DNA of 64,000 nucleotides from Patescibacteria group bacterium (GCA_041650915.1 JBAZKE010000001.1:379284-443283), one strand, 5' to 3'. Shown: positions 18,668-54,955, counted from the stretch's first letter. Program-made: numbers and translations. The notes: generated by a model from the letters alone, not told the origin.

Positions 18668-18715
18668 ATGCGGGGGGTAAGGAGTAGGTCTGCGGTTCGA
18701 CTCCGCGCAACGGTT
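18668..18715 (+). pseudogene. tRNA 3'-half fragment (anticodon-stem 3' strand + T-arm + acceptor 3' strand)
   Basis: GGTAAGGAGTAGGTCTGCGGTTCGACTCCGCGCAACGG resembles the 3' half of the tRNA-Thr(GGT) above, with no matching 5' half. Partial 5' copies (TGTAGCYCAGYTGG x3) lie at 18481-18560. Confidence 0.5.
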
Positions 18716-25783: not shown

Positions 25784-25875
25784 CCCGGTTTCCGGCCTGG
25801 TTCGCAGCCAGTGCCGCAGCGAATGCGGCGAACTTCCGGGTTGATTTTTTATTGCGGACGGAGGATGATGGACGT

Positions 25876-26409
25876 ATGCCGACCACTATGCCGTCACGTG
25901 AGGACTATCAACACATCAGGGAAAAAATCATCGACTACCTTTCGAGGCAAGGTTTTTCGGAAAAGAAATTACTACGTAAAGTCACCAACCTGAAGCGCCG
26001 TTACCCGCATACGCTCCGGTACCGATTCTATACGCTTGAGCACGTCCAGAAGGTGATTAACGAATTGAAAGCCGAGGGGCTGGTCGACGACCGGCAGTAC
26101 GCCGAGGCGGTCCTGCGGCAGCTGCGTGACCGTAAAGACGGCATGTACCGCATCAGGCAAAAAATGCAGCACCGGCTTATCCCGCGTCCCATTATTGAAA
26201 AAGTGCTCGGAGAGTGGAAGCAATCAGGTGCACAGCAGGATTACACGGCAATTGTCCAAGAAGCAAAACGAAAATACGGACGGCTCAAAGAAAAATATCC
26301 GTCATCACAAGAGCAGTATACGGTAAAACAGAAATTGTATGCGTTTCTGGCGCAGAAGGGATATACGGCGGATGAGGTGAAGGAGATCATGGGAAAAGTC
26401 GTCCGATGA
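25876..26409 (+). CDS. recX: regulatory protein RecX
   Basis: Three-helix repeat pattern (IIDYLSRQGFSEKKL...; AEGLVDDRQYAEAVLRQL...; FLAQKGYTADEVKEIM). Start uncertain; the ORF opens at 25852. Confidence 0.6.
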   Translation: MPTTMPSREDYQHIREKIIDYLSRQGFSEKKLLRKVTNLKRRYPHTLRYRFYTLEHVQKVINELKAEGLVDDRQYAEAVLRQLRDRKDGMYRIRQKMQHRLIPRPIIEKVLGEWKQSGAQQDYTAIVQEAKRKYGRLKEKYPSSQEQYTVKQKLYAFLAQKGYTADEVKEIMGKVVR

Positions 26410-32812: not shown

Positions 32813-32958
32813 GCGCACCTCACTGTGTTTGGGGTTTATGTTTATTGTAAGCAATGTTAATAAAGAACCGGACATCTGTCAATGCAGACGTTCGAACCGT
32901 TCATGGGGCATTGATCAATAGGATTGATTTTTTCCGCATTGGTTTGTATGATGAAGCC

Positions 32959-34323
32959 ATGCGGATACATACGGCGGCATATCGCACGGGGGCTATAAAA
33001 AAATTATTTTTGTTTGTTTGTGGCTGCAGCTGTACCGCATTGGTTGCGGTTGCCGGCTCTATGGCTGTCGAGGCTGCTGTTGATGATTGCCCTTCAGGGT
33101 ACGAGTGGCAGCGGATGAGCGGCGTGGGGTGCGTCCAGATAGACTGCGCTGATTACGCACATGCGCACTATTCGTATACGAGTGCGTGCATTTGCGGCTC
33201 GGCCGGAAGCATCAATGAAAACCCGGCTGATCCGAACACGGGCTGCTACCATTCGAGTGATTATACGGCCTGCCCTGGATGCTTGTACGCGTGCATCCAT
33301 GCCGACGAAGAATGCCCTCAGCCCCCTGGAGAAGTGCCCGTCAGTACTGCGAATAGTGCGAATGCAAACAGGAATACAAACGCCATTGCCAATGCGAATA
33401 GTGCCGTCAACACGAATACCGCGACAAGCCAGAATATAAATGTTAGCAACGCCGGCACGAATATGCCGACGCTTACCACGGGCAACGCCGTTGCGGCAGC
33501 GTCCTGCGCTGATGAGTGCAGTAAGTACCTTCGCGGGCATGCGAATGCGGCTGTTGTGTCGGCTGAGGGTGAACCCCCGAACTGCAAGTGCCAGGTCGAT
33601 GTGCGCGGCACGGGCGGCGAGATCACCCAAACGATTTCAACCGACGGCCCGATTCAGACAACCTACGTATTCGATCCGGCAACCGGCGCCCTTGTTTCAC
33701 GGGAGCGGGTTGACCGGCGCGAACAGGCGGAGCGCATCCGACGGCGCTTGGGGTACCGGTATACTGAGGAGCAGATTGACGCGCTCCTCGCACCGGAAAA
33801 GATCGACCAGTGGTTCCAGGGCCAAATGAATCCGATTGAAACGTCTACCAGCGGATGGCATCCGCAGTTTTGGTGGCAGCATTTCGTTGCGCTCCTCGAC
33901 CACGGGACCAATGGCTCGAGCGCTGATTTCGTCGACGTGCACCATTATGGCCGGTGCGGGGATTCGATGCAGTGGCTTGAGCGGAACCTGTCGGGGGAGC
34001 TGCATTTAGGCGATGATCCGGATGAGCCCGGGCAAAAGCACGAGGCCATGCTGTCGATCACCGGCGAGAAGTGGGGAAATTTTCTGAACCATACGTCAGT
34101 GCTGATCCGGCCGGCAGGGATTACGAATGACGAGTGGGAAGATATTGTTAAAGAATTGAAAGCGAAGTCCGGCGGCCAGGAAGACAATCCCGGCATTGAG
34201 CCTGGCAATTTGCAGCAAATCGATCCGCGCCTGCTGGACGCGAAAGTGCTCGACCCGTACAAAAAGCAGATTACGACCGTACGCGAATTCATCAAGGGCT
34301 GGTCGTATATCCGCGTCAGTTAA
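32959..34323 (+). CDS. secreted Cys-rich protein with Asn/Thr-rich low-complexity linker
   Basis: Signal-like LFLFVCGCSCTALVAVAGSMA, a Cys-rich module, a NANTN-type linker, then a C-terminal globular region. Start at the ATG at 32959 downstream of a promoter-like motif. Confidence 0.5.
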   Translation: MRIHTAAYRTGAIKKLFLFVCGCSCTALVAVAGSMAVEAAVDDCPSGYEWQRMSGVGCVQIDCADYAHAHYSYTSACICGSAGSINENPADPNTGCYHSSDYTACPGCLYACIHADEECPQPPGEVPVSTANSANANRNTNAIANANSAVNTNTATSQNINVSNAGTNMPTLTTGNAVAAASCADECSKYLRGHANAAVVSAEGEPPNCKCQVDVRGTGGEITQTISTDGPIQTTYVFDPATGALVSRERVDRREQAERIRRRLGYRYTEEQIDALLAPEKIDQWFQGQMNPIETSTSGWHPQFWWQHFVALLDHGTNGSSADFVDVHHYGRCGDSMQWLERNLSGELHLGDDPDEPGQKHEAMLSITGEKWGNFLNHTSVLIRPAGITNDEWEDIVKELKAKSGGQEDNPGIEPGNLQQIDPRLLDAKVLDPYKKQITTVREFIKGWSYIRVS

Positions 34324-34829: not shown

Positions 34830-35090
34830 TGAGGGACGAACCGAGGGTTCTTCCCTCATCAGCTCCTTTTTCCTTCAACGTATCGCTCAGCCCGGGACCC
34901 TATAACCCGTGGCTTCGCGATGGTTTAAAAACATTCAAGGGACGAACCGAGGGTTCTTCCCTCATCAGCTCCTTTTTCCTTCAACGTATCGCTCAGCCCG
35001 GGACCCGTAGATCCTGTCATTCGACAGGACAGGCCCGTGAGCTCGCGATGGTTTAAAAACATTCAAGGGACGAACCGAGAGATTTGAAGC
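34830..35090 (+). repeat. intergenic tandem repeat (about 2.3 copies of a ~107-132 bp unit with variable insert)
   Basis: CGCGATGGTTTAAAAACATTCAAGGGACGAACCGAGGGTTCTTCCCTCATCAGCTCCTTTTTCCTTCAACGTATCGCTCAGCCCGGGACCC is repeated at 34834 and 34941. Contains the GAGGG-TTCTT-CCCTC hairpin. The second unit has an extra CCTGTC-ATTC-GACAGG hairpin. Confidence 0.8.
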
Positions 35091-35114
35091 TCGAGATGAA
35101 TTAAGATTTATTTT

Positions 35115-35327
35115 ATGGCAGATCAAGAAGGTGCACCGGCTAAAAAAAATCTCCTGAAACAATGGTGGTTTTGGGTTATCGTTGCCGCAATTCTTGGAGC
35201 AGTGTTATTCGTTCCGTACATCTGCGAAACGGCAAACTGCATGCCCTGCCCGGAAGGCGTTGTCTGCGCTCCGTGCCCTGGGCCGGAATGCCAGGGGCTC
35301 GCGGGGTATAGTATTGACAGGCTGTAG
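35115..35327 (+). CDS. small membrane Cys-rich peptide
   Basis: 70 aa: TM segment, then C-x4-C-x2-C-x5-C-x2-C-x3-C. Confidence 0.4.
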   Translation: MADQEGAPAKKNLLKQWWFWVIVAAILGAVLFVPYICETANCMPCPEGVVCAPCPGPECQGLAGYSIDRL

Positions 35328-35534
35328 GCACACGCGGTTGATTATCCGCCGCCTCGCGGTACCATGCCAGCGTTACAAGCATGGTGCCCTAAACCGGGCT
35401 ACCCCGGTAAAACCTGCACTGACTGGACTTGTTCCAGCATCTACGTTACCCGCGATAAGAAAACGGCAGCGCTTGGAATTCGCAACTGCCGTCTTTTGTT
35501 TTTCGCGGGGGGTATGCAGGGGATGCACGACCGT

Positions 35535-35916
35535 TCAGCTGGCCTTCGATGATAGTACGTAGCAGCTGGTCCTGATAAACAGATAGGCATTCAGGCACCA
35601 GCAGAGGATGCAACCAGGGCAGACCAATTCTACCTTGATTGCCTTGATGACCAGCAGTACCGTACTGACCGCGGCGATCAGTATGAGAACGTGGGTTGTG
35701 ATCTGGAGCGCTTGCCCGGGCCAGCCGCTGAGGCGCGACCAATGGGCTGCCGCCGCAATGCTAGCGTATCCGGCCATGCCGATAACCGCGAGCGGTATGC
35801 CCCAGAGCAGGGTGTCGCTGTATTGCTTCGCATGGGCTATAGAACATCCCCAGGCGGCCAGGGCGAGCCCGATACCTACGCCCGCACATACTGCAGTATG
35901 CTTGAAATGATCCATG
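35535..35916 (-). CDS. hypothetical polytopic membrane protein with CxxC (VKOR/DsbB-like thiol oxidoreductase candidate)
   Basis: Likely start MDHFKHTAVCAGVGIGLALAAWGCS... within ORF 35535..36137. About 4 TM segments, and CPGC near the C-terminus. Confidence 0.35.
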
Positions 35917-36152
35917 AGCGATTTTCCTCCGGTTTTTGTTTTTCTGATTAATATGTCATTCTTGTACAATTTCGCTGGAGTGTCAATGCTCCCTGCCAAT
36001 GGCCAGCCCCCTCGCGCGCCTAAATTCGGCTCCCGCCGTTTGTTATATAAAAAAAAGGAGTCGGACTCTACTGCAGTCGAACTCCTTTGGATTGTGCCCT
36101 GATGTGGGGCCTCCTCCCTCTGCTTGCTGCGTGCCATTCTTGATAGTGGGTA

Positions 36153-36674
36153 TCATTCATCATCATACTCGGAGCTTTCCTGGTCGCAATAGCAATTGTC
36201 GGAGCAATACTGCGCTGGAAAGGGATTTGCCGTTACGCAGTTTGCGCAATATGGCTTTTCGCAAAACTCACAAACACGCTGCTCTTTTTTGTCGATCCAT
36301 GCTCCACAGGCGGGGTTTTTGCATTGGACCTTATCGCGGCATAACAGGCAACGGCCGTTATAGTCCATGCAACGCGTACAGCACTTGTCACCGCATGAAA
36401 CGCACTCGCGTATGTCATCCACAGGCACGTTCCTGGAGCATCTTTCGCAACAAAAGGTCTCTTCTTCTGCCGCTTCTTCAGCCTCCGGCTTTTTATCCAG
36501 AACGATTTCACTGCGGATTTCATCTTCGCATGCCTCGAGCTCTTCCGGCGTGACTTTCCTGCCGCGCCGAAAACCGCCGAATGCCTTTACGATGACATAT
36601 ACACCTCTTGCAGCCAGCGCGATCAATCCTAATCCAATCAGCGCTCCGGCCAAGTCGTCGTCTTCCTGGCTCAC
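36153..36674 (-). CDS. membrane-anchored multi-zinc-ribbon Cys-rich protein
   Basis: N-terminal TM, then repeated CxxC pairs (CCERC...CVSC...CCTRC...CLLC...CKNPAC...CEFC...CANC). Confidence 0.5.
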   Translation of the reverse strand: MSQEDDDLAGALIGLGLIALAARGVYVIVKAFGGFRRGRKVTPEELEACEDEIRSEIVLDKKPEAEEAAEEETFCCERCSRNVPVDDIRECVSCGDKCCTRCMDYNGRCLLCRDKVQCKNPACGAWIDKKEQRVCEFCEKPYCANCVTANPFPAQYCSDNCYCDQESSEYDDE

Positions 36675-36774
36675 GTTTCATCACCACCTTTCGCTATTTG
36701 TCGAATGTTCTTTTTCTTTCTGCCTTTTCCATCCATCTAACCTCCTGTGCGCCCATTTGTCAATACTCACTACT

Positions 36775-36811
36775 GCTTGTTTTGCCGCTGGCAGGGGAGT
36801 AAAATGGGGGT
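36775..36811 (+). promoter_or_regulatory. conserved promoter module, copy a (TTGTTT-17-TAAAAT; leaderless-type spacing to ATG)
   Basis: CTTGTTTTGCCGCTGGCAGGGGAGTAAAATGGGGGT lies immediately before the ATG of the phosphoesterase gene. Confidence 0.6.
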
Positions 36812-37372
36812 ATGAAATTATTCGTGATAGCAGACCGACCGCCCCGCAGGCCCATTCGGGCCATTCTCTCGGAAAACCAGGTCGACGCGATCTGCACGCT
36901 TGGTGACCTGACGCTCCAGGACATCCGCCAGCTCGAGGATGTTGCCGGCATTCCAAAAGTCGGCGTGTACGGCAACCATGACAGTGGCACGTACATGAGC
37001 AGCCTCGGCATTGAGAATCTCCACCTCGCCACGGCCACGGTGAAGGGGATCGTCTTCGGCGGATTCCAGGGATCGGTGCGCTACAAGCCGGGGGAACATA
37101 TCATGTATACCCAGGAACAGGCAATGGAGCTGCTTGTCGGTTTCCCGCATGTCGATGTCATGCTTACGCACGCTCCGCCGTACGGCATCCACGATGAGCC
37201 GGACGATCCTGTCCACCAGGGATTCAGGGCGCTGAATGATTACATTGCCGTACAGCACCCCCGCTATCTCCTGCACGGGCATACCTATGCCCCTGAGCAT
37301 GACCGCACCGCCACGGTGGGCAGTACGAAGGTAATCTTTGTGTATCAAGATGCAATCGTGGATATCGTGTAA
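36812..37372 (+). CDS. metallophosphoesterase (calcineurin-like, YfcE/MJ0936-type)
   Basis: GDL, GNHD and GHTY/HAPP metal-ligand motifs. Confidence 0.75.
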   Translation: MKLFVIADRPPRRPIRAILSENQVDAICTLGDLTLQDIRQLEDVAGIPKVGVYGNHDSGTYMSSLGIENLHLATATVKGIVFGGFQGSVRYKPGEHIMYTQEQAMELLVGFPHVDVMLTHAPPYGIHDEPDDPVHQGFRALNDYIAVQHPRYLLHGHTYAPEHDRTATVGSTKVIFVYQDAIVDIV

Positions 37373-37430
37373 GGAAATGGTATAATTTTTAGGATTTCGC
37401 ATTTTGAGCCTGCCGCGCGAGCGGTTTGGG

Positions 37431-37467
37431 GTTGTTTTGTCGTTGGTGGGGGAGTAGAATGGGGGTA
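37431..37467 (+). promoter_or_regulatory. conserved promoter module, copy b (TTGTTT-17-TAGAAT)
   Basis: GTTGTTTTGTCGTTGGTGGGGGAGTAGAATGGGGGTA, 29 nt upstream of the ATG at 37496. Confidence 0.6.
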
Positions 37468-37495
37468 CAGTAACATAATATTTTGATTTAAAAAC

Positions 37496-38980
37496 ATGTC
37501 TATAAAAGCTGAAAAACAATCCAACGGCACAAACGCCGGCTTTGAAGCGACTCTCTGGGCCGCGGCTGATAAGATGCGCGGCAGTGTTGCATGGTTTTTA
37601 TTACTAGCGGTTTTTTGCTCTGGAATCCTGTTATCTTGGCCTGATCAGGCGCGTGCTGAATCGGGTTCGGAAACGAAAGACCGCTGGGTATTTAGAAAAA
37701 CGACTGAAAGAAAGGATTTGTGCGAGGCCGGACCGTCTTGCCTTAATCCTCAAGTAAATCTTGATCAATCGGGCGCCATTATTACCTGGGGAGCGGATTT
37801 AGGCGACTGTGACGGGGCTTATCAGGCCGTCGGCACATGGACCACGCCACCGGAAACGCTTATACCCGGGCAATCCGTCTCGACCTCCCTCGAAGCGTCA
37901 CTCAAACAGACAACCGCCTGCGCGGCGGCCCTTGATGCGGATAACTTTGTGTCTTTAATGGTTGGGAAAATGGTTCCTCCGGATATTTATGATGTCGGTA
38001 AATGGGAACAAATGGGGTTTGCCACGGTCCACCAACTTTTACAACAAGGCAAAGAATTTAGTGACAGCAAAACAGTTGATTGGGCCGTACCGCAGGGGAA
38101 TACCGGTGAGGAATTGCGTTTGCGGCTCGGAGCCGGAACCGGTTCATTACCTGGCGGGTATATCGTCTTTATCTATGACTACCAGACTGACGCAATCACC
38201 GCCACAGACGCACCCGCCGCGGCCGAAACAGAAACCGCAGACGATGTTTGCGCTATTAATACTACCCGCACGAGCTGGCGGTTTCCCAGCTTGATTTCAT
38301 CGGCCTATGCCCGCGATTCTGGCGCCCGGTTTGCGGATTTCAGCGGTGAGGTCACCGTGGCTCCAGGGAACGACCCTGCTGATTTGCGCCCGGCTGAAAT
38401 GGACATGGTTTTGGAAACCGGCAGCATCATCAAAACCGAGAGCGACAGCACTGCCATTATCAGTTTCGCGGATATGACCACTTTTTGCATGAAGCCGTTT
38501 ACCACCGTGATTCTAGACACGCCGCCGGAACAAGACAGCAAACTTTCTCTACTGGCCGGCAAGGTATGGATGAACGTGAAAAAAATGGTGAAGGACGGCA
38601 CGATGAATGTCACAATGAATCAGGCCGTGGCCGGCATCAAAGGCACGGTCTTTATATTGGAAGATGACGGTGACACTTCGGCCATAAAAGTAGTGGAAGG
38701 CAACGTGGAATACACCAGCCTGGCAAATGACGTGATGCTCCCGGTTGCCGGCGGAGAAACGGTAGTGGCGAGCGCGGATGGCCTGACGCCGAAGGCCGAT
38801 TTTGATATTGCCACCGAGCGCGCTCAATGGCAGGAATTTGCCAGCCCTCAGCCCGGAAATACAGTATCGGAAGATACAGATTCAAATTTTTCATACGCCT
38901 ATTGGAGCGCCATTCTCGTTGTAGTCATTGGCGGAGGGTGGGTAGTTATGAAAAAATTAAAACATAAACAAGCGCAGTAA
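37496..38980 (+). CDS. secreted/membrane-anchored protein whose first ~30 codons resemble an HsdM N-terminus (chimeric 5' end)
   Basis: Begins MSIKAEKQSNGTNAGFEATLWAAADKMRGS (the HsdM N-terminal LWxAADKLRG motif). It then runs directly into a TM/signal segment (VAWFLLLAVFCSGILLS) and a 460-aa extracellular region with a C-terminal TM. Confidence 0.6.
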   Translation: MSIKAEKQSNGTNAGFEATLWAAADKMRGSVAWFLLLAVFCSGILLSWPDQARAESGSETKDRWVFRKTTERKDLCEAGPSCLNPQVNLDQSGAIITWGADLGDCDGAYQAVGTWTTPPETLIPGQSVSTSLEASLKQTTACAAALDADNFVSLMVGKMVPPDIYDVGKWEQMGFATVHQLLQQGKEFSDSKTVDWAVPQGNTGEELRLRLGAGTGSLPGGYIVFIYDYQTDAITATDAPAAAETETADDVCAINTTRTSWRFPSLISSAYARDSGARFADFSGEVTVAPGNDPADLRPAEMDMVLETGSIIKTESDSTAIISFADMTTFCMKPFTTVILDTPPEQDSKLSLLAGKVWMNVKKMVKDGTMNVTMNQAVAGIKGTVFILEDDGDTSAIKVVEGNVEYTSLANDVMLPVAGGETVVASADGLTPKADFDIATERAQWQEFASPQPGNTVSEDTDSNFSYAYWSAILVVVIGGGWVVMKKLKHKQAQ

Positions 38981-39095
38981 CCAATCTTGGTTAGCAACAT
39001 AATTTCTAATAGGATTGATTTTTTGTACAATAAAAAAGCGGGCTGGTGGTGTACAGCTCGCTTGGGATTTTCTGATCTACATACCGAATCGATGG

Positions 39096-39205
39096 ACATT
39101 CGAGTATGCAATTAATGTAAAGAACCATATGATGGCCACGGCTCCTACCAGGATGCCAATGAACATCAGAATCATGCGTACATTTTTCACAAGGACTCCC
39201 TTGCC
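39096..39205 (-). CDS. candidate small hydrophobic peptide (single TM, about 35 aa)
   Basis: The minus-strand frame reads (V)KNVRMILMFIGILVGAVAIIWFFTLIAYSNVHRFGM-stop, preceded by AGGGAG. Not in the ORF track (<60 aa). Confidence 0.25.
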
Positions 39206-39439
39206 GAATGGTTTCCTCGGGTAGTATCCTGCGCATCGGATACCTTATGCTTTCGCGCACTGCTTCTTTCGCATTCAGATATCAAGCATCAGGAAAATGC
39301 TTGAACCGAACATTCTAGCACGGGTTGGCCGCCCTGTCAAGAAGCGCCACCAATGTAAATAATTAAGGTAGCTAAGTTTTGGGGAAAGTTTAGGATAGTT
39401 TTTTGTTTGACATTATGGGGGTGCGGGGGTAGGTTTGGG

Positions 39440-39476
39440 GTTGTTTTGTCGTTCGTGAGGGAGTAAAATGGGGATC
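39440..39476 (+). promoter_or_regulatory. conserved promoter module, copy c (orphan; points antisense into the minus-strand gene 39561..39803)
   Basis: GTTGTTTTGTCGTTCGTGAGGGAGTAAAATGGGGAT. No plus-strand gene follows. Confidence 0.45.
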
Positions 39477-39500
39477 TGTGGCTTGATAAACGAATATCAT

Positions 39501-39532
39501 TCAATAAAGAGACCGGTCATGGTTGGCCGGTC
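39501..39532 (-). terminator. rho-independent terminator of the minus-strand small gene
   Basis: GACCGG-CCAACCATGA-CCGGTC hairpin followed by TCTTTATTG on the minus strand. Confidence 0.5.
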
Positions 39533-39560
39533 TGGGTTTCGGGCAGATTGAATCCACCTG

Positions 39561-39803
39561 TTATGATTTGTTCAATTCTCGCAAAGCGTTCACACCGATC
39601 TCCTGGTGCGTTGGGTCGTTTTCCACTTCCCGGAAAAACGCCGGGGCTAAATCCCCGAGAATCTCCTGGGCAGCGCCGCCGGTGATGACGTCACCGCAGC
39701 CCGTTTCTATCTTTTCCCGGGCGGCGCTCAGTACGGCATCTCTCCGGTCGGCAAGTTCGGGGTGATCGGTAAAGTACTTTTCGAGGTTTTTAATCGCAAT
39801 CAT
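39561..39803 (-). CDS. hypothetical small protein (80 aa)
   Basis: More protein-like than the overlapping plus ORF; has its own terminator. Confidence 0.45.
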   Translation of the reverse strand: MIAIKNLEKYFTDHPELADRRDAVLSAAREKIETGCGDVITGGAAQEILGDLAPAFFREVENDPTHQEIGVNALRELNKS

Positions 39804-39932
39804 CAGACGCTCCTTGGTTCAGTGTTTGTATGTGGTTTTGTCATAGTATAGATGCAGCTCCTCATATTGTCAATCTCAGACGTTGGTGCTTTTGGGTTGA
39901 CTGTGTGTACACAAACATCGCGTATCACTGCG

Positions 39933-40011
39933 CTTGTTTTGCTGTTCGTGGGGGAGAAGGCGACTGGCGGGAAGTGGTGGAGTTGACAATCTGGGCGAAC
40001 GGGTGTACGAT
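39933..40011 (+). promoter_or_regulatory. promoter module copy d (diverged), then a consensus TTGACA-17-TACGAT promoter
   Basis: CTTGTTTTGCTGTTCGTGGGGGAG..., then TTGACAATCTGGGCGAACGGGTGTACGAT upstream of the GTG at 40049. Confidence 0.5.
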
Positions 40012-40048
40012 GCACCGAAAATTGAACCTATAAAAAACGGAGGATATC

Positions 40049-40435
40049 GTGAGTATTGAAATCAAGCATGACATCCAGACCAGGGTATCATTCACGCGTA
40101 CCGGGGTGAAGGCACGAGTGATCGCGTTCGTCATGGGGCTTCAGTGCGAGCTGACCCCGAATGACGTGCTGAAAAAGGCCGGGGTGGAAATTCTGCCGGG
40201 CGAACACTGGTACGTGGTGTATTATGACCATGACCAGAAATGGTACAGCGCGTGCAAGGTTGGCAATCCGGACGATACCGTCGCTTATGAGGAGGACATG
40301 GCGTACCTCATTACCCGTTCGGAAATACCGGAGCATGACGGCGTAGCTGTCCAAGCTGCCATCGAAAAGGGCATCTATGCCTATCGGACGCTAGTCGGCA
40401 GTTCCAAGCCCATCTGGATTGAGAGGGAGCATTAA
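40049..40435 (+). CDS. hypothetical protein (GTG start)
   Basis: 128-aa ORF with a consensus promoter and a GGAGG RBS (AAACGGAGGATATCGTG). Confidence 0.5.
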   Translation: MSIEIKHDIQTRVSFTRTGVKARVIAFVMGLQCELTPNDVLKKAGVEILPGEHWYVVYYDHDQKWYSACKVGNPDDTVAYEEDMAYLITRSEIPEHDGVAVQAAIEKGIYAYRTLVGSSKPIWIEREH

Positions 40436-40544
40436 TATCAGTACCCAACACAATGAAAGGGTGGTTTGCATGACGCAGATCACCCTTGATTTTTTTGTGC
40501 TCCCGCACCATTGAAAATGGTGTGAGAGGTTGATTTATTAGCAA

Positions 40545-40565
40545 AAAAGGAGGAGAATGGGGGTA
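40545..40565 (+). promoter_or_regulatory. conserved promoter module, truncated copy e at the edge of the AT-rich island
   Basis: AAAAAAGGAGGAGAATGGGGGTA keeps only the 3' half (the -10 and G-run) of the module. Confidence 0.4.
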
Positions 40566-40592
40566 TGTATTTGGTTTACACCATGATTATTA

Positions 40593-41468
40593 ATGACTAT
40601 GACTATGACAGATTACAGTGAGTTTCAAAAAAGATTCAAACTATTAGCGAGTAAAAATAAACATCTCGTAATTAACACCTTATCCAATATATTTACGATG
40701 AGGTTAATTGGTAATAAAACTCACGGTGATTTAGCAGAGATAGGCATGGTTGAATTTATTAACCAGTTCATGTATGACTTTAAAAGTATTCATGTTGGGA
40801 AAGATTTATTCCGGGCAAAAGAACATGAAGAGGATATAGTTGTTATTAATGAAATTACCAAAACTAAATTTCCCGTAAGTTTAAAGGCATATGGAGATGG
40901 GCCGCTACAACTTTCAACTGATTGTGACCAAAAAATGTTTCCATTTCTTGAGAAACAAGGTAAAAATATTGTAAATTCTAACAAAATAGAAGAGGTGTTT
41001 AAATCAAAAGAATTCGCAGCATTTGATGCAATAAATGTTATGCCACTTATTTATGATGAGAAAAAACAGAGATGTAATATTATGATTTTCGATCATAATA
41101 AAGCTATAAATGAAACTAGAAGGATTGTTTTCATTAATTTCAAAGAAAAATTTGATTTTGAAACCAAAAAAGTAATTCCAGGGAATTCTCGATCACACCC
41201 AATTTTTATGTTTCTTGATACTGGAGGAAATTATATATGTGAGGTTAGATATGGAGGCGCTTCAGCAAATGCACTTCAACGTGGTTTTTGGACTCATACA
41301 AAAAATGCACTTTCATTTTTTGATTCACTCACAAACGGCTGGATTGACTATTCTCATAATCAGACACTAGTAAAGTTGTTTAGCCTCGCACTTAATAGTT
41401 CTGAGCAGGGTCATAAATTAGCTAATGAAATTCTTCAGAAAGACATCGACAGATTAAAGACTTTATGA
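40593..41468 (+). CDS. putative type II restriction endonuclease (DpnII/MboI-family-like)
   Basis: 291 aa, AT-rich. Its stop overlaps the MTase start (ATGA). The block EVRYGGASANALQ resembles the DpnII-family EVNFYSGSGSKLN block; similarity judged by eye only. Confidence 0.4.
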   Translation: MTMTMTDYSEFQKRFKLLASKNKHLVINTLSNIFTMRLIGNKTHGDLAEIGMVEFINQFMYDFKSIHVGKDLFRAKEHEEDIVVINEITKTKFPVSLKAYGDGPLQLSTDCDQKMFPFLEKQGKNIVNSNKIEEVFKSKEFAAFDAINVMPLIYDEKKQRCNIMIFDHNKAINETRRIVFINFKEKFDFETKKVIPGNSRSHPIFMFLDTGGNYICEVRYGGASANALQRGFWTHTKNALSFFDSLTNGWIDYSHNQTLVKLFSLALNSSEQGHKLANEILQKDIDRLKTL

Positions 41469-42577
41469 CTGACCAGCAATTGAACATTTTTGGTAATTCC
41501 ACCATAACCACACCAAAAACTGAAGGTATTAAGTATGCTGGGTCAAAGTTAAAAATCTTGCCATATATAATTGAATTAGTAAGCGATTTAAAGGGTGTAA
41601 AAAAAATCTTAGATGGCTTTACTGGCACAACTCGTGTTGCACAAGCTATGGCACAACTTGGATATGACGTAACCGCCAGTGATATATCAATATGGTCGGA
41701 AGTATTTGCTAATTGTTATTTAAAGTCGAAGAAACCCGATAAATTTTATCAGGATATTCTAGACCATTTAAACAAGCTAAAGGGTTGTGATGGTTGGTAT
41801 ACTAGACATTATGGCGCCAAACCAAAAGAGAATAAAAAGCCATTTCAGGAAAAAAATACCCGTAAATTAGATGCGATCAGAGATGAAATTGAGAAGATTA
41901 ATTTACAATGGGTTGATAAATGTGTTATTTTGACCTCATTAATTAATGCATTAGATTCGGTTGATAGCACACTGGGTCATTATGTTTCATATCTCTCAAA
42001 TTGGTCTAAACGTTCGTATAATGATTTATATTTAAAATTACCAAAAAGAATTCAAAGTCCTGGCAAACATAAAGTGATTAAAGGAGATATTTTTGAAACA
42101 ATTAATAATAATGAATTTGATTTAGTGTATTTTGATCCACCGTATGGCTCAAACAATGAAAAAATGCCACCCAGCAGAGTCCGTTATGCCTCTTATTATC
42201 ATATTTGGACGACGGTTATCAAACATGATAAACCGGTAGTTTTTGGTAAGGTAAATCGAAGAGAAGATAGTAGGGACTTGGTAGCTGGTTCTGTATTTGA
42301 GGATTTTAGGAAAGATAATAATGGTTCATTTATTGCAATGGAAGCATTAAGAAGATTAGTCAAAGAAACAAAAGCACGATATATATTATTGTCATACAGT
42401 TCTGGCGGAAGAGCAACAAAAAAGGAACTTAATGAGATAATTGATGAATCGGGTAAACTATTAAAAGCAGTTGAAATTAATTATAAAAAGAACGTAATGG
42501 CTAATATGCGATGGACACATGAATGGATAAACAGTGATGGAAAGCATTCGGAATACCTTTTTTTAATGAAAAAATGA
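41465..42577 (+). CDS. D12-class (Dam-like) N6-adenine DNA methyltransferase
   Basis: N-terminal IKYAGSKLKILPYII (KWAGGK-type motif I) and catalytic VYFDPPYG (DPPY). Confidence 0.8.
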   Translation: MTDQQLNIFGNSTITTPKTEGIKYAGSKLKILPYIIELVSDLKGVKKILDGFTGTTRVAQAMAQLGYDVTASDISIWSEVFANCYLKSKKPDKFYQDILDHLNKLKGCDGWYTRHYGAKPKENKKPFQEKNTRKLDAIRDEIEKINLQWVDKCVILTSLINALDSVDSTLGHYVSYLSNWSKRSYNDLYLKLPKRIQSPGKHKVIKGDIFETINNNEFDLVYFDPPYGSNNEKMPPSRVRYASYYHIWTTVIKHDKPVVFGKVNRREDSRDLVAGSVFEDFRKDNNGSFIAMEALRRLVKETKARYILLSYSSGGRATKKELNEIIDESGKLLKAVEINYKKNVMANMRWTHEWINSDGKHSEYLFLMKK

Positions 42578-42589
42578 TAGGACAATGTT

Positions 42590-42745
42590 ATGGCAATAGA
42601 AAAGGTTAGTTTTATCGCGACAAAGTATAAAAACAAACCGACAATGGTACGTTTTTATACTAAAAAAGGTGATGTTGTAAGATTTTCAGCTCAAAAAAAA
42701 GCACCCGTAAAGCAGGTTGTTGAATTTAAAGCTAAGTCAAAATAA
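42590..42745 (+). CDS. small basic protein (51 aa)
   Basis: MAIEKVSFIATKYKNKPTMVRFYTKKGDVVRFSAQKKAPVKQVVEFKAKSK. Below the ORF-track length cut-off; lies between the MTase and rusA. Confidence 0.35.
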   Translation: MAIEKVSFIATKYKNKPTMVRFYTKKGDVVRFSAQKKAPVKQVVEFKAKSK

Positions 42746-42748
42746 ATT

Positions 42749-43198
42749 GTGAGCACTACATATTTTGATTACAGTTTTGGGTTGTCAGAAATTATTCCAT
42801 CAGGCAATCGTCAAAAAAGTGATAGTGCTTGTGCGTTTTATAAAGTTGTTGGTCAAGCGTTAAAAGATATTGATAAACAAGGAATCTTCCCAACAAAAAA
42901 GTTAGTTTTTATTTTTATTTTACAGTTTTTTTCGAATCAAGAAGAATATCAAAAACGAGATATTGATAATATGTGCAAAACCATGCTGGCGGCATTAAAA
43001 AATAAGATATATGAGGACGACGTACAAGTAAAAACGTTATTAATCAGTAAACAAATAAATAGTAAGATTCCGGTAAACTTCGTTTACATCGGAATAAAGT
43101 TATCCGATTACAAGGATAATACCGGAATGGTGAAAGTAAATATTAACAATGCCATATCATTGTTTCAGGGCTCTGTTAAACAAGCAGTTGAAAAGTAA
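42749..43198 (+). CDS. rusA: RusA-family Holliday junction resolvase (phage-type)
   Basis: QKRDIDNMCKTMLAALKNKIYEDDVQV matches the RusA catalytic block [28 protein letters not shown]. Confidence 0.7.
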   Translation: MSTTYFDYSFGLSEIIPSGNRQKSDSACAFYKVVGQALKDIDKQGIFPTKKLVFIFILQFFSNQEEYQKRDIDNMCKTMLAALKNKIYEDDVQVKTLLISKQINSKIPVNFVYIGIKLSDYKDNTGMVKVNINNAISLFQGSVKQAVEK

Positions 43199-43237
43199 TA
43201 TAATACGGTAGATACTATATGAGTGCTAATCCTAGCA

Positions 43238-43267
43238 CTTGTTTTGTTATTGGTGGGGGAGTAGGAT
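43238..43267 (+). promoter_or_regulatory. conserved promoter module, copy f (TTGTTT-17-TAGGAT)
   Basis: CTTGTTTTGTTATTGGTGGGGGAGTAGGATGG, 10 nt before the ATG at 43277. Confidence 0.55.
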
Positions 43268-43276
43268 GGAGAATAT

Positions 43277-44365
43277 ATGGTAAGCATTTTCGAACAAATT
43301 TCAATTTTATTACAAGGACAGCCTTGGATGGTTTTTGGTGGTTATAATTTAAAACTCCAGGGGATTGATAATAGCGCAAATGATATTGATATTGTTACGA
43401 CTGATAAGGGGATTGGGATAATAGCCAAAACGAGAAAAGAAAAAGTTAATCGAGGAAATAATTGGAAAGGATGTAAATTTGTCGTAAATGGACTGCAAAT
43501 TGACGTAATCACTGAGGAGGGTTTTACTCAACAATTTTTTCAAAAATACTTACAAGAAAACAGAATAAACATTATATATTATGATGGCGTACCAGTATTT
43601 TGTTTAAAATTATCTGAGCAACGAAAAGGATACGAAGCAATTTTAGCCGCTCATAAGGGGAGCAATGACCCAACTCTTAAGATAGAATTATTGAAAAAAT
43701 ATGAGGAAAGTAATAAATTCACCCCCGAGCAATGGTATGTTGTGTGGAAAAGAATTTTCGAAGAAAATTTATTAGCCGACTTATATAAACTAGTCAGTAA
43801 TCAACCGCAGCAAAGTGGAGGTTTGAATTTCGTTATTGTACTGATGTGCCTCGTAACTATGGATTTAGTGGGGAAGCTTATTTGCGGATCAAATAACAAA
43901 GACGCAATAAGGGCATTTATTAAATCGGAGTTTTTTCAAATACCTAAAGCTTACAATGGAGACGACTTTGCGGATATAATTAATACTGAATTAAGAAATA
44001 ACCTGGCTCATGCCTTTTTCCCTGAAAGGAACATTGCAATTGGCAGAAATACACCTTTTCAACATTTTAATATTATACCAGTAGTCGGTTCTGAAAGAAA
44101 ATTATTTTGGATTGATGCTGATGAACTGCACCGGGATCTTTTGCAATCGTTAGATCAATATAAAGCGGCTTTAATTGAAGATAAAAAACAGGACGGCGAT
44201 AGACTCAGGTCATTATTTGTTAAATATGTTAATGAAAATATGTTAACTGAGTCGATAAATCTTAAAGGGTTTATGGAAAAGAATTATAAGCTCGATGTAC
44301 ATAATTATCCAATTAGTTCAGATAAGGTTACTCATACTACAACGTTACCGCCTGAAACAAAATAA
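43277..44365 (+). CDS. fused minimal nucleotidyltransferase (MNT) - HEPN-like protein
   Basis: N-terminal WMVFGGYNLKLQGIDNSANDIDIV (hGG-x13-DhD NTase motif, Lnu-like). C-terminal ELRNNLAHAFF fits the HEPN R-x4-H motif. Confidence 0.5.
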   Translation: MVSIFEQISILLQGQPWMVFGGYNLKLQGIDNSANDIDIVTTDKGIGIIAKTRKEKVNRGNNWKGCKFVVNGLQIDVITEEGFTQQFFQKYLQENRINIIYYDGVPVFCLKLSEQRKGYEAILAAHKGSNDPTLKIELLKKYEESNKFTPEQWYVVWKRIFEENLLADLYKLVSNQPQQSGGLNFVIVLMCLVTMDLVGKLICGSNNKDAIRAFIKSEFFQIPKAYNGDDFADIINTELRNNLAHAFFPERNIAIGRNTPFQHFNIIPVVGSERKLFWIDADELHRDLLQSLDQYKAALIEDKKQDGDRLRSLFVKYVNENMLTESINLKGFMEKNYKLDVHNYPISSDKVTHTTTLPPETK

Positions 44366-44456
44366 TTTCCATTGTTTATATCGGCAGATCCGCCCCCCCG
44401 CTGGCGGTTTTTTGTTTGGGATGATCGTGATACAATAATAATACATAAAAAATTAT

Positions 44457-44696
44457 ATGAAAAAAGCACTATATATTTCCTTTGCTATCGTTGTACTGCT
44501 CGGTGCCGGGATATTCATTTACTTCCAATACTGGGGCACTGATGGCATCCCTACGAATTCAAACACCAACACGCCTGCTAATACGAATGCGGTCGCCTGC
44601 ACCATGGAAGCTAAACTTTGCCCGGACGGATCGGCAGTGGGACGCACTGGCCCGAATTGCGAATTCGCGGCCTGCCCGGAAGTGGAGCAGGAGTAG
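44457..44696 (+). CDS. small secreted/membrane-anchored protein with NTNTPANTN linker
   Basis: 79 aa with N-terminal TM and Cys pairs in the C-terminal part. Confidence 0.45.
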   Translation: MKKALYISFAIVVLLGAGIFIYFQYWGTDGIPTNSNTNTPANTNAVACTMEAKLCPDGSAVGRTGPNCEFAACPEVEQE

Positions 44697-44900
44697 GTTG
44701 GAAGGAAGGAGGGTGTAAGTTTTAGGAAGAAAGTAAGGAAGTATGAGATAGGAAGAAGGGTGGATGAAGGGAAGTAGGGCGAATGATGAAGGCATAGTAG
44801 TAGGAAGTAAGTTTTTAGGTTGTACGAAGAAAGTAAAGAAGAAGGAAATTAGAAGAAGGATACGCATTGACGCGAAAAGGAAATTCTGATAACATTGAAG
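44697..44900 (+). repeat. strand-asymmetric purine-rich (GA) low-complexity tract with internal imperfect repeat
   Basis: GGAAGGAAGGAGGG...AGGAAGAAAGTAAGGAAG... The units (GTAAGTTTT(T)AGG...GAAGAAAGTAARGAAG) occur twice. Confidence 0.6.
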
Positions 44901-44996
44901 CACATAAAACTTCCCCAAATTTGCGGGAAGTTATATTTATTATGGATAAGTATTGTGGATAAATGAATGTTGACAATATAACATATATGATATATT

Positions 44997-45350
44997 ATGA
45001 TTAAAGCGTATTATTTCGTGCGACAAAACGGAAGGGCGCCGGTTGAGGAGTATGTTCGTTCAATCAACTCAAAACGGGAAATTGCCTATATCCAGGCAGC
45101 GATTGATAAGTTAATCAAGTATGAAGGAAGGTTACCGCTGCCATACGCAAAGAAAATCCGCGATAAAGTATGGGAGTTACGTTCACCATTAGGCAATCGG
45201 GTTTTTTATTTCATTGATACAGGCCAGGAGATTATTCTCCTCGATGGGCACACAAAAAAGCGTGACCGAATAGAACCTCGAATCCTGAATCGCGTTTTGA
45301 ACCACTATAGGGAGTACCAAGCTACCCGTAACCGTAAACCGTACCAATAA
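44997..45350 (+). CDS. type II toxin, RelE/ParE superfamily (Gp49/HigB-like)
   Basis: 117 aa. KVWELRSPLGNRVFYFIDTGQEIILLDGHTKK is the Gp49-like (DUF891) signature. Confidence 0.65.
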   Translation: MIKAYYFVRQNGRAPVEEYVRSINSKREIAYIQAAIDKLIKYEGRLPLPYAKKIRDKVWELRSPLGNRVFYFIDTGQEIILLDGHTKKRDRIEPRILNRVLNHYREYQATRNRKPYQ

Positions 45351-45360
45351 CAAATCATAT

Positions 45361-45627
45361 ATGAATAAGAATAATATTTTTTATAAATTTCAAAAGGACA
45401 AAGAATACCAACGCTACTACAAAGAAGCAAGCGATATGCTTGAAATTGCCATTCAGATCGCTGAAGCGAGGAAGAAACAAAAGATGACCCAGGTCCAGTT
45501 AGCAAAACATATCGGTATGCCCCAGAGCCAGATTGCCAGGATTGAGAGCGGTAATAGCAATACAACTGTCAGTACACTGTATAAAGTCTTAAACGCGCTT
45601 AATTTGCGTTTGAAATTGGCGAACTAA
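45361..45627 (+). CDS. XRE-family HTH antitoxin (HigA-like)
   Basis: MTQVQLAKHIGMPQSQIARIESGNSN is an XRE HTH. Immediately downstream of the toxin. Confidence 0.65.
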   Translation: MNKNNIFYKFQKDKEYQRYYKEASDMLEIAIQIAEARKKQKMTQVQLAKHIGMPQSQIARIESGNSNTTVSTLYKVLNALNLRLKLAN

Positions 45628-45734
45628 TTATTTTTTCTTTTACATTTCGCCTTAACGGGCGGTTTTTTATTTGAGATGAATATGGAAGGACGGGGCGTTT
45701 GTTTATTATGGAGAAATAATATACAATACCAAAC

Positions 45735-46034
45735 ATGACCAAGAACCCATTTCTCAATGCACTCGCAGCAGGTGCGTACATCGTACTGGTAGTTGGTATC
45801 ATGACGTACATGGGCAAACTCAATGGCGGCCAGGACCAGGAGTTTATCACGCCGCTCGCGGTACTATCGCTGTTCACGTTGTCAGCCGCGGTGATGGGGT
45901 ATCTGTTCCTATACCAGCCGTTTAAGCTGTACTTCAATAACGAAAAAGAGGCTGCAGTGAAGCTCTTCCTTAAGACAGTTGCGATTTTTGGTGTTATGAC
46001 CGCATGCATACTGGTAGTCGTGGCCGTAGCATAG
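45735..46034 (+). CDS. small membrane protein (3 TM)
   Basis: 99-aa hydrophobic ORF. Confidence 0.45.
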   Translation: MTKNPFLNALAAGAYIVLVVGIMTYMGKLNGGQDQEFITPLAVLSLFTLSAAVMGYLFLYQPFKLYFNNEKEAAVKLFLKTVAIFGVMTACILVVVAVA

Positions 46035-46134
46035 AGTACCCTTGAGATTTTGCCGAGGTTGTTTTTTTATTGGAGAAGATTCGGTTAGAAGCGGTTTTTT
46101 ATTTAAAGTAATCGTGATACAATTGTGTTACTAT

Positions 46135-46299
46135 GAATAAAATAACTCGAATAGCACTGTCCATTCTCGCGATACTGTTTGGGGCGTTTATGTTTGTGTA
46201 TGGCGGATATGACGACAGCCCGGGAGGGCAATTATTGGGATTGGTGCTGGTTATTGGCGGCATTGTGCTGATAATAAAAAGCAGGAAGAAAAAGGAAAA
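46135..46299 (+). CDS. small membrane protein (54 aa, 2 TM, Lys-rich tail)
   Basis: MNKITRIALSILAILFGAFMFVYGGYDDSPGGQLLGLVLVIGGIVLIIKSRKKKEK. Below the track cut-off. Preceded by a terminator/promoter junction motif. Confidence 0.35.
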
Positions 46300-46637
46300 A
46301 TAAGAAGCATCCAACTACCGCGATGGGATGCTGCGCATTGCCGGAGAACTGGGCGCACGTTGTTTTTTTGCCGACTGGCTTTTGTACCAGGGTACGGCGA
46401 CCAGGTGAAAGCCGAAGCCATCAACCGCTTGCCACGGGAGGTTTTCAATTTTTTCGAGCAGTTGTCTTCGCTGATTGCCAGAATCGTCGGGTAGAATTTT
46501 TAGAAACAAAAACAGGCTTCACGCATTGACAGCGCGGGGATTATTTGGTTAACTGCTTAAATCAGTTTTGTGAAACAGGCCTTTGATACTGCCAGTAAAC
46601 TGGCAAAAACCCCAAAACAAAAGAAAGGAGTGTGCCC

Positions 46638-47888
46638 ATGGCACTCAATGAACTCGATCGTTTCCTGGCGTATGCCAAAGTTGACACGCAGTCAAGAAAA
46701 GCGGCGCCGGGCGAGGAGGAACAGCACCCGAGTTCGGCCGGCCAGGCAGAACTGGCCAGCATCGTTTTCCAGGAACTCTGCGGAATCGGTGTCCCTGAAC
46801 AGCAGATCACGAGGCTCGGTGACGGTTCGCTGCTCGTGTACTTGCCGCCAACGGAAGGCTGTGAGAACAAGCCGACGGCGGCGTTCGCTGCCCATTTCGA
46901 TACCTATCCCGCGAGTTCCGGCAAGGTCAACCCCATCATACACGATTACGCCGGCGGCGATATCGTGCTGCCCAATGACGGCACCGTGATCCCGGCCGCG
47001 GATCTCGCAGGCTTCGAGGGCAGCCAGATCGTGACAGGTGACGGCACCTCGCTGCTCGGCGGGGACGACAAGGCAGGCGTTGCCGGGCTGATGGAGGCCA
47101 TCAGCCGGATCATCGGCGAGGAACTTCCGCACGGGCCGCTCTATATCTGGTTGTGTGTGGACGAGGAAATCGGGAAGGTCGGCACCGACTTCCTGCCGGA
47201 AGGAGTGCCGGACCAGTGGGATATTTTCCTGACCGTGGACGGCAAGGGAGTCGATACGGTGGATATCGGCTGTTTCAACGGCGCGGAGGCTGTCTTCACC
47301 TTTATCGGCAACGATGCCCATCCCGGCATCGACGGTGACAAGCTGAAGCCGGCGCACTTCGTGGCCGCCCGCTTCGTTTCCACAATCGCCACCTTGCAGT
47401 GCCCGTGGGATCCCGCGGACGCCGAAGACTCGTTCTACTATGCGTTCTTTTTGGGAGAACCGACTCCGGGCAGAGCCGTGGTGCAGTGCGTCCCGCGGTC
47501 GTTCGACCTCAGGGATCTGGATGGCATGGCGAAAGATCTCCGCGGTTTAGCCCAGGAAGCGGCTGATGTGTTCGAGGTCACCCTGGAGGGCGGCGAGCTG
47601 AAGGTGCTCTATGTCAGCACCGAGGAGGCTATCGCAGCCAATCCTGGCCTGATGGAGGTCGTATTTGCCGCGGTCGGGGCGAACGGCTACCCGCTGGTCA
47701 AAGAACGGGTGCGCGCCGGCACGGATGGCGCCATGCTCAACATGAAGTACCCGGACATCCCGGCGCCGAACCTCGGCACCGGCGCTCGCAATCTTCACGG
47801 CGTGCGCGAGTTCCTGGCGGTCAGGGAGTTCGAGACGGTCGTCCCGACGCTCCTGCGGATCATCGCAGGTTTCGCTGAAATGGGGTAA
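46638..47888 (+). CDS. M20 family metallopeptidase (PepT/tripeptidase-like)
   Basis: GGDDKAG metal-binding motif and M20 domain organisation. Start at the ATG at 46638 after the AAAGGAG RBS. Confidence 0.75.
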   Translation: MALNELDRFLAYAKVDTQSRKAAPGEEEQHPSSAGQAELASIVFQELCGIGVPEQQITRLGDGSLLVYLPPTEGCENKPTAAFAAHFDTYPASSGKVNPIIHDYAGGDIVLPNDGTVIPAADLAGFEGSQIVTGDGTSLLGGDDKAGVAGLMEAISRIIGEELPHGPLYIWLCVDEEIGKVGTDFLPEGVPDQWDIFLTVDGKGVDTVDIGCFNGAEAVFTFIGNDAHPGIDGDKLKPAHFVAARFVSTIATLQCPWDPADAEDSFYYAFFLGEPTPGRAVVQCVPRSFDLRDLDGMAKDLRGLAQEAADVFEVTLEGGELKVLYVSTEEAIAANPGLMEVVFAAVGANGYPLVKERVRAGTDGAMLNMKYPDIPAPNLGTGARNLHGVREFLAVREFETVVPTLLRIIAGFAEMG

Positions 47889-54762: not shown

Positions 54763-54955
54763 GTGCAGCGCCTGCCGGCTCCTGTTACGATAAAAATAAT
54801 TTACGGCGCGCAGCCGCTCCCAGCCGGGCGGCTGCTGCTTGTAGGTTGATTTTTTGTTTCTGCGGGGGTAGGATGAAAATGCTGCAGCACGTTTATTGGT
54901 GGCCGCATGGTAACCGAGAAACGAGAATCCCGCAATATTTTTTCATATTTACTTC

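Follow-up and report, generated by a model that had tools for sequence, protein, structure and literature searches.

The stretch analysed here, a 64-kb window (64,000 nucleotides) of chromosomal DNA from an uncultivated bacterium of the Patescibacteria, also called the candidate phyla radiation (CPR), encodes DnaE, TypA, CopA, RecX and tRNAs. Its M20 peptidase (gene at 46632) is 100% identical to an NCBI protein of a Patescibacteria group bacterium. As listed in Table 1, the window also carries a variable accessory and defence island. The island encodes a metallophosphoesterase matching a PADLOC candidate family, a FecR-domain secreted protein, small genes without known function and a HigBA-like pair, together with a type II restriction endonuclease (REase) and methyltransferase (MTase) pair, a RusA-like protein and a 362-amino-acid (aa) protein, the genes of the pair and of the last two proteins all being 31-33% GC. 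The GC content of the window is 53% and that of the core genes flanking the island is 55-62%. Six copies of a module of about 40 nt were found in the island between positions 36775 and 43272, all co-oriented and all on the plus strand. Judged from their sequence and setting, these repeats are probably copies of a compact core promoter of the sigma-70 (housekeeping sigma) type that is reused in front of unrelated acquired genes.

Table 1. Positions of the module copies and associated features, counted from the first nucleotide of the window.
Feature	Position	Strand	Elements
Variable accessory/defence island	36675-46520		holds all six copies; about 10 kb
Copy 1, subfamily I	36775-36814	+	-35 TTGTTT 36777-36782; 17-nt spacer ending GGAG; -10 TAAAAT 36800-36805; GGGGG, T, ATG 36812
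Copy 2, subfamily I	37423-37467	+	-35 37432-37437; -10 TAGAAT 37455-37460; GGGGG-TAC
Copy 3, subfamily I, orphan	39432-39473	+	-35 39441-39446; -10 TAAAAT 39464-39469
Copy 4, subfamily I, decayed	39932-39962	+	-35, spacer and GGGAG intact; AAGGCG at the -10 position
Copy 5 with hairpin, subfamily II	40500-40567	+	hairpin 40500-40528; -35 TTGATT 40530-40535; -10 GAGAAT 40553-40558; GGGGG-T-ATG (40565)
Copy 6, subfamily I, AT-richer spacer	43219-43279	+	terminator-like hairpin 43219-43242 overlapping -35 TTGTTT 43239-43244; -10 TAGGAT 43262-43267; ATG 43277
recX site, outside the island	25841-25878	+	hairpin before; TTGATT; 17-nt spacer ending GGAG; GATGAT; GGACGT; ATG 25876
Canonical promoter TTGACA-17-TACGAT	39983-40011	+	followed by GGAGG Shine-Dalgarno sequence and GTG start 40049
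hsdM 5' stub	37496-37585	+	about 30 codons; HsdM N-terminal signature; fused in frame to FecR-domain secreted protein (reading frame to 38980)
GCGGTTTTTTGTTTGGGATGATCGTGATACAAT family	44404-44436, 45659-45691, 45695-45727, 46091-46123; L002 14017-14051

When the window was searched with GGGGGAGTARAATGGGGG, which covers the 3' half of the module, four matches with at most three mismatches were found versus 0.08 expected, and TTGTTTTGYYRYTSGYRRGGGAG, which covers the 5' half, gave five matches versus 0.02 expected. The spacer-masked pattern TTG[AT]TT-N13-GGAG-NANNAT matched six times (0.02 expected), five times in the island and once before recX, where a further site of the same architecture lies outside the island. 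Repeat detection on the window returned a direct-repeat family of five copies and 42 nt, and a profile built from the copies found nothing comparable elsewhere in the 64 kb. The repeats are not an assembly artefact, since a stretch of 12.3 kb holding all of the copies is 100% identical in L001, an independent assembly of this strain. Exact-pattern scans with the first motif gave no matches in genome, viral (IMG/VR) and metagenome contigs, and a second viral scan with a different, relaxed pattern also gave none.

An earlier note on this DNA, referred to below as the sequence-only reading, had listed six sites in an accessory region (36775, 37431, 39440, 39933, 40545 and 43238). All six are present on the plus strand, the accessory context is supported, and the 17-nt spacer that it described is exact in every copy. 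The site at 40545 had been taken for the 3' half of a module only, but this copy is full-length and in register, and only its spacer differs and belongs to another subfamily. The divergence noted at 39933 was confirmed and consists in the loss of the -10 element. The module had been said to stand upstream of at least six genes; four copies do head plausible genes or operons (36812, 37496, the operon at 40593, and 43277), while one of the others is decayed and one is an orphan. The orphan, copy 3, has no plus-strand gene downstream of it and, as the sequence-only reading proposed, points at the minus-strand gene 39561-39803, facing a terminator hairpin (39510-39533) and the 3' end of that gene.

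The anatomy of the module was read from a gap-free alignment of ten copies from three organisms, namely those of the window, of L003 (another Patescibacteria metagenome-assembled genome) and of L004 (a contig of 43% GC); the L003 and L004 loci were retrieved from metagenomes with a relaxed pattern. In all ten copies the spacer has a length of exactly 17 nt, a T-rich start and GGAG or GGGAG as its end. The -35 element is TTGTTT, TTGATT or TTTACA, with TTG in nine of the ten copies (L003a has TTTACA). TAAAAT, TAGAAT, GAGAAT, GAAAAT and TAGGAT occur as -10 elements, so that NAnnAT is found in nine copies, the -10 element of copy 4 being lost. A G-run (GGGGG), forming a 5-bp discriminator, follows the -10 element in most copies and is itself followed by T-A-T or T-A-C in 6/10. 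The TTG of the -35 element, GGAG, positions A(2), A(5) and T(6) of the -10 element and the following GG are invariant or nearly so, even where the spacers differ completely. A general layout of bacterial core promoters has been described with a T-tract by the -35 element, a G-rich region by the -10 element, a 5-bp discriminator and a YRY/YRR start element centred on the transcription start site (TSS), and G-rich sequence adjoining the -10 element is reported as a general transcription enhancer (PMC12641261). The module reproduces this organisation with its T-tract, G-rich block, 5-bp discriminator and T-A-Y start element. Because the layout matches a 5-bp discriminator followed by a YRY start element, the predicted +1 is the A located 7 nt after the -10 element.

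Most copies are immediately preceded by hairpins of differing sequence that extend into the TTG(A/T)TTTT tract, and the same overlapping arrangement of terminator and promoter was found at recX and at 54846. Upstream transcription would end at these hairpins, and a new promoter would therefore be needed behind them. The copies are co-oriented with the downstream genes, and copy 1 and copy A of L004 lie in divergent intergenic regions in which no other promoter candidate (for copy 1, on the plus strand) was found. The promoter function suggested by the sequence-only reading thus fits the anatomy of the module, its orientation, its divergent or post-terminator intergenic position and the exact 17-bp spacing. 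As single-stranded DNA the module showed no fold (minimum free energy, MFE, about 0 in most copies), and covariance models of Rfam, run over 35000-47000, gave no match to a known structured RNA, riboswitch or leader at E <= 1. On inspection, a sigma-32-like reading of the reverse strand was rejected for lack of a conserved partner hexamer, and a G-quadruplex was rejected with loops that were too long.

The distance from the -10 element to the nearest downstream ATG is 6 nt at both 36812 and 40565, 9 nt at 43277 and 35 nt at 37496. At 36812, at recX (25876) and at ORFs A and B of L004, a real open reading frame (ORF) opens with a start codon that coincides with the predicted +1, 6-7 nt behind the -10 element, and in these four cases, where the +1 A begins the ATG, the mRNA would be leaderless. 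Copies 2 (35 nt), 3, 4, 5 (an 18-codon ORF) and 6 (9 nt) do not have this geometry; other copies would give short leaders without a Shine-Dalgarno (SD) sequence, about 30 nt long from the predicted +1 in copy 2. Leaderless mRNAs, which the sequence-only reading had derived from copies lying 6-10 nt from an ATG, can thus be proposed for some copies, such as that at 36812, and not for copies 2 and 5. An in-frame TAA within the -10 element of copy 1 leaves no start upstream of ATG 36812, and the Pfam alignment of the metallophosphoesterase (36812-37372) begins at residue 1. Independent annotation pipelines start at the ATG of the module for 36812, recX (NCBI start 25876, RecX domains found), 43277 and ORF B of L004; the start of the 362-aa protein behind copy 6 was placed at 43277 by NCBI and at 43328 by JGI.

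Across the window, the distance from a promoter-like site to an ORF-opening ATG peaks at 5-7 nt, and an SD-like motif precedes only 10 of the 48 independently called genes (gene calls of L001, L011 and L012). Leaderless or SD-less initiation would therefore be a habit of this genome, with its few SD-led genes and its other leaderless-style promoters, and not a special property of the module. In the same set of called genes, a -10-like hexamer lies 5-8 nt upstream of the start in 13/48. Further leaderless-style promoters were observed at 32924-32961 and 45699-45737, and from the former it is suggested that a 489-aa ORF starts at ATG 32959.

Several copies have additional signals beside them. 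About 45 nt upstream of copy 2 lies a canonical extended -10 promoter, TGGATA-16-TATAAT preceded by TG (37359-37386), so that the two would form tandem promoters; a string resembling GGTAKAATTTTTAGRA of this promoter was also found at 44712 and 46490. Downstream of the decayed copy 4, the canonical promoter at 39983 is the predicted functional replacement of that copy, and L004 repeats the pattern of a decayed copy followed by a canonical TTGACA-17-TAnnAT promoter (about 4084). Copy 5, whose hairpin region has a z of -5.3, stands precisely at the left border of the type II restriction-modification (R-M) cassette (REase_II and MTase_II matches), whose GC content is 31-33%. The 18-codon ORF that begins at its ATG (40565-40621) overlaps the start region of the REase gene, where a hexanucleotide repeat (ATGACT ATGACT ATGACA) is found at 40593-40610, and this ORF may act as an upstream-ORF control on expression of the restriction enzyme.

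The copies fall into two subfamilies. Subfamily I comprises the copies at 36775, 37431, 39440, 39933 and 43238, which have 7-11 of 13 spacer positions in common outside the GGAG block and, on inspection, differ at the variable positions almost only by transitions. Copies 2 and 3 are identical at 39/42 positions (93%), including 9 nt upstream of the -35 element, with flanks that are not significantly similar; homology of these two copies beyond the 42 nt was rejected as not significant. Subfamily II comprises the copy at 40530, L003b and L004A/B from three organisms, with 8-9 of 13 spacer positions in common. Copy 5 together with its hairpin matches L004 2139-2206 with 84% identity over 68 nt (blastn, E = 4e-14), and within this match the stem has changed in a compensatory way. 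Over about 40 nt the two copies of L004 are 100% identical to each other, with unrelated flanks, and the L004 arrangement was also present in datasets L009 and L010 (three datasets in all). From the spacer comparisons we conclude that the five subfamily I copies are likely to share ancestry, and the subfamily II unit probably arrived with its low-GC R-M cassette.

The sequence-only reading had argued that conservation of spacer and G-run beyond the needs of sigma-70 means copying. The spacer-masked pattern also stands before the core gene recX, and part of this excess conservation is therefore attributable to functional promoter grammar, which was likewise found in other organisms; the argument stands for the five copies that have a specific spacer in common. 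No match to the strict grammar was found in four other Patescibacteria loci (77 kb in all, of which 21 kb come from an 84%-identical relative) or in the extra 7 kb of the source genome to the right of the window, and the module does not appear to be a phylum-wide consensus.

Several points weigh against a copied sigma-70 promoter. The -35 element agrees with TTGACA at only 3-4 of six positions, and for this reason a generic promoter scanner did not list the copies. Sigma-70 is not known to contact GGAG, which differs from the TGn of an extended -10 element and could instead be bound by a regulator. The ATG at the +1 of copy 5 (40565) opens the 18-codon ORF and not the REase gene. The spacers of unrelated promoters (recX and 54846) share up to 8/13 positions with subfamily I, and the argument from descent is weakened because a T-rich-then-G-rich composition alone gives that many spacer matches. 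The sample of the source genome covered about 71 kb of 680 kb, including about 7 kb beyond the right edge of the window, so that the module may not be specific to the island.

Gene replacement behind a module was observed at copy 2. The stub that follows it matches the N-termini of class I S-adenosylmethionine-dependent DNA methyltransferases (tblastn), and alignment by eye with HsdM N-termini of CPR bacteria gave the signature LE..LW.[SA]AD.[LM]RG. At 37585/37586 the coding switches from HsdM-like to FecR-domain (Pfam), so the annotated 494-aa ORF after copy 2 is probably a chimera, and the true start of the FecR-domain protein is likely to be ATG 37574, immediately before the signal peptide. 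The hsdM stub thus documents directly the replacement of a gene body while the predicted promoter ahead of it was kept.

The locus is a hotspot of defence-gene turnover, since the closest available relative, L002, holds a complete type I R-M system at the position of the island and a related R-M operon in L007 adjoins a large serine recombinase. This MerR-HsdM type I R-M operon (L002 1-8439; L007 3-1484) appears to ride on an integrative element, given its serine recombinase neighbour in L007. The right boundary of the island, at about 46520, is where homology to L002 stops (84% identity of the M20 peptidase); it starts only at the TTGACA-17-TTAACT promoter of the M20 peptidase gene itself, which begins at 46632. 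The block of 31-33% GC at 40560-44400, with the REase/MTase pair, a 51-aa ORF, the RusA-like protein and the 362-aa protein, is clearly a recent import. A segment of the 362-aa gene (43718-43890) has 69% DNA identity to L002 9261-9433, in the gene just upstream of the M20 peptidase of the relative. An island anchored by tRNA genes was rejected, the tRNAs lying only at 18.5-20 kb, as was an uncalled intron-split tRNA near 18690, for which Rfam gave no support. A search with a VKOR-like protein, aimed at the DNA upstream of hsdM in the relative, returned only the query itself, one with the HsdM fragment of the relative did not return that protein, and a protein-anchored scan of genome contigs with the M20 peptidase found no relative.

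As to the route of spread, subfamily I may have multiplied locally, or may have been retained while the DNA behind it was exchanged. Another Patescibacteria lineage would be the most likely source of copy 5 and its hairpin, brought in together with the low-GC type II R-M cassette, and copies that become redundant (39933) or stranded (39440) would decay. The spread is explained most economically, we infer, if promoters were kept during exchange of the DNA downstream and were also transferred jointly with their cassettes. Saccharibacteria are described as naturally competent in PMC10187176, and homology-anchored exchange in a naturally competent lineage is a speculative mechanism. A wider proposal, which we regard as rather unlikely, is that hairpin, promoter and start codon at +1 form a portable, insulated expression module that circulates among Patescibacteria with defence and accessory cassettes and serves as a homology anchor for cassette swapping in naturally competent cells. 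If true, it would be a recombinase-free, promoter-anchored analogue of the integron.

Reuse of a core promoter was weighed against four other explanations. Each copy could have evolved independently into a strong promoter obeying a grammar of the lineage, with nothing copied. The presence of the same grammar at recX (25841) and of looser versions at 32924, 45699 and 54846 would agree with this, as would the coincidence of the invariant blocks with known functional promoter sub-elements and the 8/13 positions reached by unrelated spacers through composition. However, convergence would not account for the low-information spacer middle TGYCGYTSGTG common to subfamily I, the similarity of copies 2 and 3 upstream of the -35 element, the identical L004 copies or the 68-nt hairpin-plus-promoter unit common to copy 5 and L004, and the strict grammar was not found in the 77 kb of other Patescibacteria DNA, so that we consider pure convergence unlikely. 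A dedicated regulator or alternative sigma factor, binding GGAG and the G-run that flank the -10 element and co-regulating the island genes, is very unlikely. GGAG is invariant in ten copies without being a standard sigma-70 contact, the copies are clustered in one island, and a gene for a sigma factor of the extracytoplasmic function (ECF) type lies about 17 kb beyond the island on its right, downstream side (L011 16812-17396); yet the module has neither the dyad nor the direct-repeat symmetry typical of operators and does not resemble ECF promoters, recX and other organisms have these blocks too, G-rich sequence by the -10 element is a reported general enhancer, and a HigA-like antitoxin is the only regulator gene linked to the copies. 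The ECF-type gene is followed by a possible anti-sigma gene (L011 16812-18172, about 69.5-70.9 kb in window-equivalent positions), just past the right edge of the window.

The island is laid out like an array in which repeats alternate with one gene or operon at intervals of 493-3305 bp, with discrete repeat boundaries, cassettes ranging from 58% to 31% GC and one inverted cassette. The module could thus be a recombination site of an integron-like or att-like cassette-capture system, or a set of short homology anchors for swapping, with promoter activity being secondary; the turnover hotspot, with the type I R-M system of the relative and the serine recombinase beside the L007 operon, and the competence of Saccharibacteria described in PMC10187176 would suit this explanation. 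We nevertheless find it decidedly unlikely, as the module is unstructured as single-stranded DNA and shows neither dyad symmetry nor inverted repeats, the only replacement junction that was mapped (37585/37586) falls about 120 nt downstream of the module and not in it, and the copy at recX does not mark a boundary between cassettes. No terminal inverted repeats or target-site duplications were found at the module, whose flanking bases differ at every copy, and neither a transposase nor a recombinase of the tyrosine or serine type was detected in the scanned ORFs of the window (about 1.7-64 kb; Pfam, NCBIfam and PADLOC), which represents about 10% of the genome. The absence of inverted repeats, target-site duplications, foldable sites and recombinase or transposase genes argues against a mechanism of the integron type or of miniature inverted-repeat transposable elements (MITEs). 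The mobile promoter of MITE type with target-site duplications envisaged by the sequence-only reading was therefore dropped, and an attC-like structure was rejected for a module that does not fold. Another reading takes GGAG as an SD sequence for an ATG within the -10 element, the resulting mini-ORF (MGV*) being coupled to the main ORF via an overlapping ATGA. GGAG-N4-ATG is present in 9/10 copies, and ATGGGGGTATGA in three copies places the mini-ORF stop over the main ATG. An SD-to-ATG spacing of 3-4 nt is too short for efficient initiation, the length and sequence of the mini-ORF are not conserved (3, 4, 5, 9 and 27 codons), any SD motif occurs in only 10/48 genes of the genome, and the exact 17-bp distance to a -35-like hexamer would be left unexplained, which makes a translation signal scarcely credible.

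Other repeated sequences were observed near the modules. A second reused terminator-promoter family, GCGGTTTTTTGTTTGGGATGATCGTGATACAAT, consists of a hairpin tail, a T-tract and an extended -10 element (TGATACAAT). It heads three small membrane-protein genes, and one copy is 89% conserved at a different locus of the 84%-identical relative. In L004, the 3' ends of cassettes share a C-rich box, CCCCCACACCAAT (1471, 2140, 3157 and 5035), which sometimes pairs with ATTGGTGTG(G) to give a hairpin ahead of the module. The reverse complement of CCCCCACACCAAT resembles the G-rich spacer end of subfamily I (TTGGTGGGGGAG), which hints that the two subfamilies are related. The non-coding stretch 44690-44870 is purine-rich (A/G) and contains two direct repeats of about 44 nt, 100 nt apart and 80% identical (44716-44759 and 44816-44859).

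Promoters and translation-initiation signals of the Patescibacteria/CPR are largely uncharacterised; in a limited search of the literature, neither work on leaderless transcripts in the phylum nor TSS mapping in its environmental members was found. The locus offers a sequence-resolved candidate for a strong, compact and probably leaderless promoter, which is reused before unrelated genes and conserved between lineages of 53% and 43% GC. Its value would lie mainly in providing a first sequence-resolved promoter model for the phylum, a testable one that includes the very low SD usage. The candidate promoter is also a possible genetic part for the emerging tools in Saccharibacteria and their relatives, and it suggests how newly acquired defence genes could be expressed in a tiny genome, by being placed behind a retained or co-transferred promoter.

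The module was compared with known systems. Its geometry is like that of leaderless promoters of other Terrabacteria, such promoters being known from Actinobacteria, Deinococcus and others (for example the M. tuberculosis leaderless transcriptome cited in PMC12641261, a paper whose TSS set includes one CPR species); in contrast, the leaderless state of the module is predicted from sequence, for some copies only and in a Patescibacteria host. MITEs with outward promoters, such as Correia/CREE of Neisseria and ERIC of Yersinia, are likewise short dispersed intergenic repeats that give promoter elements to their neighbours, but the module differs in having no terminal inverted repeats, target-site duplications or folding and in that all copies have one orientation and, apart from the orphan, lie upstream of gene starts. 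Integron arrays (attC, Pc) also combine co-oriented, heterogeneous and mostly single-gene cassettes with a recurring short element at a variable locus. Unlike attC sites, which are imperfect palindromes, the module is an unstructured promoter located 5' of each gene. Every cassette has a promoter of its own, the hairpins upstream differ in sequence and look like terminators, and no integrase was found among the scanned ORFs of the window. The repeated early promoters of phages and plasmids are similar in that nearly identical complete promoters precede many small unrelated ORFs, whereas the island has no phage structural or replication genes and the two-pattern scans of IMG/VR were empty.

The closest description is that of putative mobile promoters (PMPs), which are homologous short non-coding sequences before non-homologous coding sequences, with upstream neighbours that are likewise non-homologous, at least 50 nt long with at least 80% identity (Matus-Garcia, Nijveen and van Passel 2012, PMC3488235; PMC3575422). 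PMPs occur in several copies per genome, with some families common to different genomes, and the same is true of the module. The sequences downstream of the copies are non-homologous (metallophosphoesterase, hsdM stub and FecR protein, REase, 362-aa protein) and the flanks are unrelated. The longest alignment between copies within the genome is 42 nt at 93% and thus shorter than 50 nt, a length reached only by the inter-genomic pair of copy 5 and L004 (68 nt, 84%). The module copies also differ from PMPs in being tightly clustered in one island and resolved to individual promoter sub-elements. Our verdict is that the module represents promoter reuse in the sense of PMPs rather than a new class of mobile element.

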